From Chloroflexota bacterium (GTDB lineage Bacteria; Chloroflexota; Dehalococcoidia; Bin125), in the NCBI GenBank assembly GCA_028875225.1, contig JAPPFB010000002.1, positions 11,182 to 75,181 on the forward strand: a DNA stretch of 64,000 nt, given 5' to 3'. The position numbers were made by a program, and so were the translations under genes. Below, one piece after another: positions 3,793 through 5,484 of this stretch. Position 1 is the first letter of the stretch, and each line of letters opens with the position of its first letter. Below the pieces are notes generated by a model. The model was not told the origin of the DNA and did not search any database. It worked only from the letters and a program-made list of their open reading frames with translations.

Positions 3793-5484
3793 TCACCGGC
3801 CATGACAGCGCTTGAACTTCTTGCCCGAGCCGCAGGGACAGGGATCGTTGCGTCCCGCGGTGCGCGTCGCAACATCGATCAGGCCAGCATTGATCAGGGG
3901 CGGAAGATCGCGCTCCATGATCCTGGTCAGCCCCTGTTCGCCGCGCAGATTGTGTTGTCGGTTGACCGTTGCGACGATGTCGCCCAGCGAAGTTCGGCCG
4001 TTCATCTGGCCGATGCAGGCCGCCATGACGGCCGTGATGGGATACGGGTCTGAGCGTTGTTCGCCCGAATCGACCACGAGCTGGAAGGCCTGCTGGAAGT
4101 TGGCGCCGGCCAGGGCGCGGCGTTGCTCCAGCCTGACGTGGGCGGGCAATGACGGGACCGCGCGCAGCAGAGCGCCGGGCTCGGCGGTGATCGCTTCGGT
4201 CTCGCGGCGGCGTCGCTCGGCGCGGTCGTCGCGCCGACGCACTTCCGACTCAATCTCGGGCGGGAGTTCGCCATGTTCGATGACGGCGCGCTCGTATCCC
4301 GTCGGCGGCTGTCCACTGACGACGCGCACGAACGCTTCGCGTGGCGTGGAGTCGTCATCGCCGAGGATGCGGCGCGCTTCCCAGAAGTAGGAGTCGGCGC
4401 TGCGATTAGTCCCGTAGAAGAGCTGGGCCGTGAGATGGAAGTAGTCGTACTGCTTGCGATAGAGCGACTCGTACAGCTGCGCCGCCTGATCTCTGGTCTC
4501 CGGCTCCTCCAGAGCCGACTGCACGTAGTTGGCGGCCAATGTGGCGCTGCCCAGGGCCAGGTGCACGCCGGAGGAGAAGAGCGGATCGACGAAGCAGGCC
4601 GCGTCGCCAACCAGCACGTAGCCGTCGCCGGCGAACCGCGTTGAGGTGTAGGACCAGTCACGCTCGACTCCGGGATCGTCCACCAGTGTCGCTTCGCGAA
4701 GCAGCTCTCTGGTATGGGGAGCCAGTTCGACCTGGGCCTCGAGGAATCCTCTGGGGCCGAGCTCACGCAGGCCCCGCTGGCCAATCTCCTTGTCGACCAC
4801 CGCGCCGACGCTGGTGACGCCGGTGTGCAGCGGGATCTTCCAGAGCCAGCCGTGTTCGTAGGACTCGATGAAGATGTTGCCGTTGTTGGGCGGATCGAGA
4901 TGCGCAGCGTTCTCGTAGTAGCCGTAGACGGCGAGATTCTTGAAGTGTTCGTCCCACTGGTGCAGATCCAGCTTGCGGCTGAGCAGCGCGGTTTGCCCGC
5001 TGGCGTCGACGAGGAATCGGCAGGCGATCTGGCTTGCCTGACCGTCGGCCATGTACTTGACGCCGGTGACCCGCTCACCGTCGAGTTCAATGTCGAGCAC
5101 CTGGTGTTCTTCGCGGACGTCGACGCCATGCGCAGCGGCGTTCTTGAGCAGGATGTGGTCGAACTCGGAGCGGACGACCTGGAAGGAGGTCGGGCGTTGG
5201 CCCGGATCGTCGGCGAAGTACCAGCTCCAGGGCTCGGGATCCTTGCCCCAGACGAGGGTGGCGCCGCGCTTGACGACGAACCCGGCCGACTCGATCGCCG
5301 GCATCACGCCAATCTGTTCGAGCACCGGGATGCTGGCTGGCAGGAGCGACTCGCCGACGTGTTCGCGGGGGAACTTCGCGCGTTCCAGCAGCACCACCTG
5401 GTAACCCCGATCGGCAAGCAACGTGGCGCAGGCAGAGCCGCCCGGTCCGCCGCCGATCACGACGATGTCGCAGGATTCCGTCAT
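3793..5484 (-). CDS. Flavin-dependent halogenase (CmlS/CndH-like) with C-terminal winged-helix-like region and SEC-C zinc motif
   Basis: GGGPGG FAD motif, FPREHVGES, Lys72 in VKRG, WLWKIP (WxWxIP), DWSY, [26 protein letters not shown]; ends [19 protein letters not shown]. Confidence 0.85.
   Translation of the reverse strand: [563 protein letters not shown]

Follow-up and report, generated by a model that had tools for sequence, protein, structure and literature searches.

On what would a flavin-dependent halogenase act if its gene stood beside those of a solute importer and its catalytic domain were followed by a PqqD-like domain and a metal-binding tail of the SecA type? The question is raised by a 64,000-nucleotide stretch from a Chloroflexota bacterium of the class Dehalococcoidia (GenBank assembly GCA_028875225.1, contig JAPPFB010000002.1, positions 11,182 to 75,181 of the forward strand; hereafter the window), in which the gene at 3793..5484 on the minus strand encodes such a protein. 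The combination of a halogenase, a PqqD/RRE-like domain (RRE, recognition element of RiPPs, peptides made by the ribosome and altered after translation), a SecA-type tail and an importer operon is unusual, and we see about an even chance that the protein is a two-component halogenase acting on an imported solute, possibly a peptide.

The gene encodes 563 amino acids (aa), starts with ATG, stops with TGA at 3793-3795, contains domains matching Pfam families PF04820 and PF02810 and has its 100% self-match in the source genome (3.2 Mb, 96% complete), to which all genome-wide profile counts given here refer. A first-pass annotation of this DNA, made from the letters and their open reading frames (ORFs), had placed a halogenase ORF here; that frame is real and lies on the minus strand, the plus-strand frame at the same positions being riddled with stops. 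All of the motifs that it had named were found in the protein (IGGGPGGS at residues 10-17, K72, GWLWKIP at 212-218, D276WSY, FVDPLFSSG at 298-306 and the C-terminal SEC-C motif), and the approximately 170 extra C-terminal residues that it had pointed out are likewise real and conserved among family members.

Catalytic domain

The catalytic, flavin adenine dinucleotide (FAD)-binding domain (residues 1-395; 4300..5484, minus strand) was delimited by phmmer, structural alignment with VIA and invariant columns. Pfam assigned it to Trp_halogenase PF04820 (E 2.7e-39, 135.7 bits against a cut-off of 21), and phmmer searches against solved structures gave CndH (3e1t; E 2.8e-98, 333 bits, and E 1.5e-98 in a second search, residues 3-392), followed by FasV (8zop; E 1.5e-79) and CmlS (3i3l; E 3.5e-75), with the further solved relatives RadH, ChlB4, PltA, Mpy16 and Bmp2 all being halogenases; MibH (5uao; E 3.4e-8) and QhpG (7ctq; 37.6 bits) matched weakly. 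Structural comparison of the full-length model gave VIA Z scores of 45.7 for FasV, 43.6 for CndH and 37.4 for CmlS, while Foldseek aligned CndH at 41% identity and CmlS over 563 columns.

When 26 members of the family, 49-93% identical to the query, were aligned, the FAD-binding GxGxxG motif (GGGPGG, 11-16), K72 (within VVKRGAT), the residues G212, W213, W215, I217 and P218 of the GWLWKIP block, D276-Y279 and the FxDPLFSxG block from F298 to G306 proved invariant in all 26. The lysine aligns with those of CndH (IKRGG), FasV (QRKYGG) and CmlS (VKKPSA), and D276 aligns with the aspartate of CmlS 'QDWSY'; we take these CmlS residues to be K71 and D277, on the assumption of a 20-residue tag in chain 3i3l_A. 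The lysine and the WxWxIP motif generally distinguish halogenases from monooxygenases.

The top NCBIfam model was CmlS NF033113, with 315.1 bits against an equivalog cut-off of 900 and covering model positions 3-385 of 570 only. The geranylgeranyl-reductase family model reached 124 bits against its cut-off of 158.8; a grouping with such FAD enzymes, which the first-pass annotation had named as a result that would overturn its halogenase claim, was checked and dismissed because the CmlS model, the solved halogenases and the invariant motifs lead.

A very unlikely alternative is that the protein is a flavin monooxygenase which hydroxylates an aromatic residue or compound, as QhpG, LodB and GoxB do. 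The NCBIfam models for these enzymes do respond to the protein (QhpG 196.3 bits against a cut-off of 240; LodB 144.4 and GoxB 100.1, both against 400), and QhpG has the same catalytic and winged-helix build and is structurally nearest to CmlS (PMC7876137, in the part available), its winged helix aligning weakly to the C-terminal domain of our protein (VIA Z only 4.6). However, all three models stay under their cut-offs and under the score of the CmlS model, the solved QhpG structure falls far short of CndH in bits, and the lysine and WxWxIP are invariant in 26 of 26 members. By sequence, motifs and modelled fold, the protein is thus probably a flavin-dependent halogenase of the CndH/CmlS type, with predicted catalysis, as the first-pass annotation had proposed. 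Two-component, FADH2-dependent halogenases of this type are presumably those labelled 'variant B'. Four PF01613 flavin-reductase genes are present in the genome, on contigs C23, C2, C16 and C8, none of them adjoining the halogenase.

The PqqD/RRE-like C-terminal domain

The full-length AlphaFold2 model, built on the 26-sequence alignment, has a mean predicted local distance difference test (pLDDT) score of 79.2. It places a linker after the catalytic domain (residues 396-439; 4168..4299, minus strand), with pLDDT below 50 at 390-408 and a long helix at 409-433, and then a compact domain (residues about 440-540; 3865..4167, minus strand) in which DSSP assigned strands 450-459, 462-472 and 481-483 followed by helices 485-491, 500-511 and 516-532. 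When residues 436-563 were modelled alone, the same order of three strands and three helices was obtained with a pLDDT of 89.6, and this order is the definition of an RRE as quoted in the accessible part of PMC12710340.

The modelled C-terminal domain was aligned by VIA-align with 48,161 representative chains, for which a Z of about 8 is the tool's level for common arrangements, the top values lying above it. The ranking began with the C-terminal domains of Rv2067c (11.5) and NovN (11.1) and the protein PqqD (5sxy; 10.7, over 90 residues at 2.2 Å), followed by the leader-bound lasso B1 proteins 6jx3 (9.8) and 5v1u (9.6), a PKMT2 domain (8.5) and the RREs of ThcOx (5lq4; 8.1) and PbtF (8t19; 7.2), with TigE at 7.0 and CteB at 6.8. 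In a second comparison, the C-terminal domain of GdmN gave a Z of 12.3 with a root-mean-square deviation of 5.4 Å over 104 residues. Profile comparison agreed with the fold: hhalign matched an alignment of 21 C-terminal domains from both halogenase clades (see below) to one of 21 PF05402-positive Chloroflexota proteins with a probability of 95.1% and an E-value of 3.3e-8 over 86 of about 100 columns, and the pattern (D/N)G..(S/T)...(E/D)I ... GL(I/V) is common to both sets.

In the full-length comparison, CmlS aligned over 461 residues (model 5..541) and was the only one of the 50 structures listed to continue past the catalytic domain into the C-terminal domain, the other 49 aligning over some 345-385 residues; the C-terminal domain is therefore positioned as in CmlS. 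CmlS was also considered as the best match of the isolated domain and rejected, since it ranked 24th in Foldseek (E 0.09) and was absent among the 50 VIA matches listed. The first-pass annotation had suspected a winged-helix/RRE-like domain, which the modelled topology, the VIA scores to PqqD and lasso B1 proteins and the hhalign match bear out, and had set RRE/PqqD against the CmlS C-terminal domain as alternatives; both apply, the place being that of the CmlS domain and the profile and fold those of the PqqD family. By profile and modelled fold, then, the domain is assigned to the PqqD/RRE family, in the place occupied by the C-terminal domain of CmlS.

Isolated C-terminal domains gave no Pfam family other than SEC-C. 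A search of protein representatives with residues 436-545 alone returned six proteins (E-values up to 0.001), the majority far shorter than the enzyme, and no other domain architectures, and an ESM Atlas search with residues 436-563 gave no usable match.

The position and relatives of this domain bear directly on what the enzyme may modify. Under one alternative, which we regard as a real possibility although somewhat unlikely, the protein would be a small-molecule halogenase unrelated to the importer, acting on a free phenolic, indolic or pyrrolic metabolite, with the C-terminal domain as a structural lid and the ATP-binding cassette (ABC) transporter genes as neighbours by descent. The alignment of CmlS over both domains is in keeping with this, as is the description of QhpG and CmlS as a catalytic plus a winged-helix domain (PMC7876137, in the part available), and the same fold ends the carbamoyltransferases GdmN and NovN. 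Since these two enzymes and protein methyltransferases also end in it, the fold by itself is no proof of peptide recognition; a 2025 survey reports carbamoyltransferases with fused RRE-like domains (PMC12710340, in the part available). Set against the small-molecule alternative is the hhalign result, which puts the domain in the PqqD family at 95%.

Search for biosynthetic partners

A carrier-tethered substrate has been proposed for CndH. Nonribosomal peptide synthetase (NRPS) or polyketide synthase (PKS) domains were found neither in the 18 candidate frames of the first 17 kb of the window nor in its 54 frames of at least 230 aa starting beyond 13000, a scan that left out most frames below 230 aa beyond about 14 kb. 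The genome contains no condensation domain and two PP-binding matches, both on other contigs, which makes carrier-tethered chemistry unlikely. A precursor gene beside the halogenase was also looked for and not found, the intergenic gaps of 66 and 78 bp leaving no room for one. Within the frames scanned, the earlier statement that the window holds no NRPS, PKS, carrier protein, precursor peptide or flavin reductase is thus upheld, with flavin reductases and PP-binding domains encoded on other contigs. No PF05402 protein was found in the source genome at E-values up to 1e-6, and this, together with the missing adjacent precursor, argues against a classical RiPP cluster.

The halogenase heads an importer operon

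The first-pass annotation had described the halogenase as an orphan, stand-alone enzyme. This description does not hold, as the halogenase leads an operon that also encodes a solute-binding protein of the Opp/Dpp type and two permeases. The family-5 solute-binding protein (SBP_bac_5; 1817..3715, minus strand), recognised from Pfam, its N-terminus and the DNA, starts at 3715, 78 bp past the halogenase stop and behind an AGGAG sequence, and begins with a twin-arginine signal (SRRSLL), a lipobox (LVGC), a poly-Asp run and a Gln-rich linker, after which the SBP_bac_5 domain follows. It is succeeded by two permeases assigned by Pfam to BPD_transp_1, the first OppB/NikB-like (764..1729, minus strand) and the second (1..761, minus strand) having its 3' end past the window start and continuing to 10681 in locus L059. 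No terminator-like site was found on the coding strand between halogenase and binding protein; the sole such site in 3300-6300 lies at 3464-3486 on the plus strand, within the binding-protein gene, and a sigma-70 promoter scan of 3300-6300 found none. A hidden gene between halogenase and binding protein, considered because a 659-aa frame overlapping the halogenase stop had the appearance of a 450-bp gap in relatives, was rejected, as the binding protein starts at 3715 and its linker is poorly conserved.

The family-5 binding protein and the two BPD_transp_1 permeases in one operon are what is expected of an importer of the Opp/Dpp type. The two ATPases of such a system are not encoded with them, no ATPase gene being present downstream of the permeases; genome-wide, 27 family-5 binding-protein genes were counted against three Opp-type (oligo_HPY) ATPase genes, so that shared ATPases look normal in the source genome. 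Nearly all of the 27 binding-protein paralogues (e.g. 1817-3715 and 26682-28610) have a near-identical twin-arginine signal, LVGC, poly-Asp run and long Gln-rich linker. This touches on the idea that the adjacent binding protein is itself the protein substrate of the halogenase, recognised through its twin-arginine translocation (Tat) signal; since the Tat lipoprotein signal and linker recur in nearly all of the paralogues, they carry no specificity and do not form a specific leader, and the idea finds no support.

In a sponge metatranscriptome (X5), contigs were found on the binding-protein gene of a close relative at 1767-3640 (e.g. 509 nt with five differences) and none on the halogenase. 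The binding-protein sequence is thus represented in an RNA library; as to the halogenase, such contigs cannot show absence and carry no weight either way.

Conservation of the importer link

A comparison of homologue neighbourhoods, which the first-pass annotation had proposed as a check, was made on 49 related loci, 41 of which are Chloroflexota-type relatives of the window halogenase. Binding-protein or permease genes adjoin the halogenase in 38 of these 41; two of the others are contig ends (L016, L048) and the third is L050. The importer link, which the first-pass annotation had missed, spans three arrangements and two binding-protein lineages. In the first arrangement, the halogenase is followed by a cassette of the window type, with a binding protein 76-98% identical; in the second (L026, L028, L033, L038, L042, L044 and L046) it is followed by a different cassette, with the binding protein 34-39% and the permeases 58-66% identical; and in the third (L034-L036) the order is reversed and the cassette comes first, the halogenase ORF of L036 beginning 20 bp past permease 2. 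The halogenase of L028 is 88% identical to that of the window and carries the second cassette, yet is nested inside the first group in the tree, indicating a cassette swap.

A maximum-likelihood tree of 54 sequences (from loci where tblastn matched 480 residues or more) showed a split with 100/100 support between an ABC-linked side of 37 and a second side of 17; since the tree is midpoint-rooted, no direction is claimed from it alone. These results weigh against a small-molecule halogenase that merely neighbours the importer by descent, as the link survives a cassette swap, an order reversal and a range of 64-100% in halogenase identity and marks one side of the 100/100 branch, and the 20-78 bp spacing implies co-transcription. 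The conserved adjacency surviving these rearrangements makes coupling to the importer the most likely interpretation of the neighbourhood. Among 301 sampled genomes of the class, 40 had a match at E-values up to 1e-60, and essentially full-length matches of at least 71% identity were confined to the window's own family, where they occurred in 10 of 18 genomes, the source genome included.

In L023 (9833-10600) and L032 (9833-10591), the halogenase and the binding-protein gene are separated by a gene for a Cys-rich putative lipoprotein of about 250 aa, of which the L023 and L032 copies are 50% identical to each other; the frames in this position in L022, L023 and L032 gave no Pfam family.

The SEC-C tail

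The last residues of the protein (545-563; 3796..3852, minus strand) match SEC-C PF02810 (E 1.9e-10, 40.8 bits against a cut-off of 20.4). The tail has the pattern CxCx8CH with flanking basic residues, the presumed metal ligands being C549, C551, C560 and H561, and phmmer matched it to the SecA zinc-domain peptides 1sx0, 1tm6 and 1ozb and to the C-terminal domain of YchJ (9l6b). The SEC-C tail claimed earlier is thus confirmed by a Pfam score above the cut-off and by the presence of the ligands. Elsewhere in the source genome, SEC-C matches were found in SecA, in a NERD-domain protein and, weakly, in an ORF with only weak helix-turn-helix matches for which Pfam does not confirm SEC-C.

Within the best 120 database relatives, PF02810 was found in 55, all at 57% identity or more, and in none of the 49 at 50-56% identity. 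In the tree set, the motif is intact in 29 of the 36 other members of the ABC-linked clade. In the sisters L012 and L030 (support of 97 in a quick tree; L012:9636-9698, L030:9627-9692) it is lost through an in-frame stop that takes the place of the GRND glycine immediately ahead of the SEC-C motif. Past the stop the motif can still be recognised, although decaying, with intact ligands in L012 and the His changed to Arg in L030, and the tail thus seems to have been lost recently. It is also decayed in L015, and the proteins of L034-L036 end differently, without it. Given these losses and decay, the tail is best described as conserved but dispensable.

In SecA and AscA/YecA, metal-binding domains of this type are reported to associate with SecB and with ribosomes (10.1101/2020.07.21.215244; 10.1101/613315, in the parts available), and this lends some appeal to another alternative, to which we give only a slim chance. 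In that alternative, the enzyme would halogenate a ribosomal peptide or a protein, the RRE-like domain gripping a leader-like segment, either of a precursor whose gene lies elsewhere or of exported proteins that are nascent or unfolded, and the tail docking on the ribosome. The PqqD/RRE fold and profile match, including the leader-bound lasso B1 structures, agree with such a role; SecB was not found in the genome, so the ribosome remains as the known SEC-C partner; and the flavoenzymes QhpG, LodB and GoxB modify tryptophan residues of proteins (PMC7876137, in the part available). It is opposed by the lack of a precursor-like gene adjoining the halogenase and of a conserved small frame beside its paralogues, by the failure to find PF05402-type proteins in the genome and by the dispensability of the tail in several lineages.

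A paralogue clade in another module

The genome encodes a second halogenase copy (contig C23:145079-146623), 50% identical to the first, which has the same C-terminal domain and no SEC-C tail. The order of genes there is alpha/beta hydrolase, luciferase-like monooxygenase, halogenase, MOSC, GNAT and aminotransferase (L060:6037-13074). Modules of the paralogue were seen in L060, L037, L039-L041, L051, L052 and L063-L076, from several Dehalococcoidia families and from metagenome-assembled genomes of Pseudomonadales. In 16 loci from other Dehalococcoidia genomes, hydrolase and monooxygenase lie within about 1.3 kb of the halogenase in ten and 5 kb off in one, with neither present in five, while the same trio was found in all six Pseudomonadales/Azotimanducaceae loci, with a monooxygenase 75-77% identical to the Chloroflexota one. 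Such identity across two phyla suggests that the module may have been transferred horizontally between them. No small ORF occupies a conserved position in the gaps beside the paralogues, which vary from 46 to 560 bp.

The C-terminal domain is therefore not special to the enzyme at 3793..5484, the same domain being shared by this widespread clade. The simplest history would lead from a widespread halogenase linked to hydrolase and monooxygenase to an importer-linked copy and then to a later gain of the tail, an order that we infer. The association of the same C-terminal domain with an alpha/beta hydrolase, a luciferase-like monooxygenase and MOSC speaks for a small-molecule halogenase unrelated to the importer, and so do the catabolic-type genes that fill the window and the 27 SBP_bac_5 genes in 3.2 Mb.

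Other genes in the window

Positions 13000-64000 have a catabolic-type content, with three family III CoA-transferases, four enoyl-CoA hydratases and two luciferase-like monooxygenases, besides a sulfatase, an amidase, carboxyl transferases, DUF1800/DUF1501 proteins and an NHL-repeat protein; positions 24758-28610 are occupied by a second cassette of binding-protein and permease genes. Next to the halogenase, a divergent neighbour of 223 aa (5551..6222, plus strand) belongs to no Pfam or NCBIfam family. By eye, its product resembles two tandem halves of about 100 aa, and it is 78-91% conserved in 17 related loci; the gene is missing beside the halogenase in other loci and thus lies outside the conserved module.

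Proposed function

Drawing these lines together, we infer halogenating activity, the kind of substrate and the roles of the C-terminal domain and tail as follows. By analogy with the mechanism established for the family, FADH2 would come from a separate flavin reductase. Its reaction with O2 and a halide (chloride or bromide) would yield hypohalous acid, and K72 would hold the halogenating species or guide it to an aromatic ring rich in electrons. The cleft between the catalytic and the C-terminal domain would receive the substrate, most likely the solute brought in by the adjacent importer; this may be a short peptide or some other aromatic compound derived from an amino acid, and the RRE-like domain would hold it. 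The tail, a small, basic zinc (or iron) knuckle, would be a later addition that most likely tethers the enzyme to a cellular partner. The importer substrate is favoured because the co-oriented, near-contiguous operon link has been kept throughout the history of the clade. A bolder form, which we consider improbable, would make this the first halogenase family to recognise peptides through an embedded PqqD-type element, its targets being oligopeptides from its own importer or, at the boldest, nascent or unfolded proteins before export, with the SecA-type tail holding the enzyme at the ribosome.

Several observations weigh against an imported, possibly peptidic substrate. The Pfam PF05402 model misses the C-terminal domain of this protein and of three relatives at E-values up to 10, and the top structural neighbours of that domain include the non-RiPP enzymes GdmN, Rv2067c, NovN and PKMT. 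The paralogue clade has the same domain in a module of small-molecule appearance, and no precursor-like gene adjoins the halogenase. On the importer side, the characterised binders NikA (78 bits, the cut-off being 393), AgaA, DppA and GsiB are all distant from the binding protein, so that 'peptide' is not established; some of the linkage may be synteny inherited by genomes that are themselves kin, and family-5 binding-protein genes are numerous in the source genome (27); and L050 has the halogenase without importer genes. As to the tail, it is absent or lost in several lineages that retain the gene, and is therefore not essential, and SecB (PF02556), the classical SEC-C partner, was not found in the 96%-complete genome.

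Habitat and significance

Two runs labelled sponge metagenome, from one study, contain the window stretch (shares of 1.00 and 0.87), and the first of them may be where this DNA came from, the X2 contigs being identical over 1-1541, 3664-4867 and 4870-6300. Runs from two other sponge studies contain close relatives, including 335 nt of X8 over the halogenase/binding-protein junction with five differences. Members of the halogenase family are plentiful among the Chloroflexota genomes obtained from sponge metagenomes. Halogenated metabolites abound in sponges, and their makers are often unknown.

Flavin-dependent halogenases are in demand as biocatalysts. The peptide-modifying halogenases SrpI and MibH use no recognition element (PMC10858898), and an enzyme with a PqqD-type domain would provide a modular means of directing halogenation to peptides. 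The pairing with an importer points to a role that we did not find described for halogenases in the papers searched, namely the modification of an imported rather than an in-house compound, and the occurrence of SEC-C on an enzyme not involved in protein export provides an added test case for the function of SEC-C domains. Should the C-terminal domain prove to be no more than a lid, and the substrate a common phenol, the protein would be well annotated but unremarkable within a large halogenase clade that is uncharacterised.

Comparison with known systems

Our literature searches found no paper joining 'halogenase' and 'SEC-C' and no description of a PqqD-halogenase fusion, although a prior listing in the supplementary tables of PMC12710340 is possible. 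A marine survey (PMC12660952) notes flavin-dependent halogenase genes in Dehalococcoidia and, in the part available, does not mention the halogenase-RRE-SEC-C architecture. The nearest known system by sequence, and nearly so by structure, is CndH (3e1t), which has the same lysine, WxWxIP and DxSY/FxDPxFSSG blocks. CndH comes from a PKS/NRPS pathway. It differs in that sequence similarity is not detectable past residue 392 and in having neither a SEC-C tail nor an importer operon, and the genome of the window, for its part, lacks a condensation domain. CmlS (3i3l) is the only solved relative among those listed to align over both domains (Z 37.4), and the DWSY aspartate aligns with the CmlS aspartate of the covalent flavin link, a link named in a title cited by PMC7876137. 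However, the equivalog score of 315 falls far below the cut-off of 900, and the isolated C-terminal domain matches CmlS weakly and PqqD strongly.

The PqqD protein and the RREs of lasso B1, ThcOx, PbtF and CteB share with the C-terminal domain a winged helix of three strands and three helices, by both structure and profile, whereas PF05402 itself gives no match and the window halogenase has no precursor peptide or RiPP enzyme nearby. SrpI and MibH are also flavin-dependent halogenases that act on peptides, both of the Trp-halogenase type; according to the available part of PMC10858898, SrpI lacks an embedded RRE and does not depend on one supplied in trans, and the leader must be removed before MibH can act. 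QhpG, LodB and GoxB belong to the same flavoenzyme group and have a catalytic domain with a C-terminal winged helix. They are peptidyl-tryptophan hydroxylases with protein substrates encoded nearby, and QhpG, composed of a catalytic and a winged-helix domain and structurally nearest to CmlS, acts on a peptide (PMC7876137, in the part available); unlike these hydroxylating enzymes, the window family retains the halogenase lysine and scores under their cut-offs.

The C-terminal domains of GdmN, NovN and Rv2067c are the top structural neighbours of the C-terminal domain (17-23% identity), although their catalytic domains are unrelated; according to the PDB entry titles, GdmN was solved with 20-O-methyl-19-chloroproansamitocin and NovN serves novobiocin biosynthesis. 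Finally, the tail shares the CxCx8CH SEC-C motif and its flanking basic residues with the C-terminal domain of SecA, AscA/YecA and YchJ, from all of which the present protein differs in that SEC-C is attached to a halogenase.

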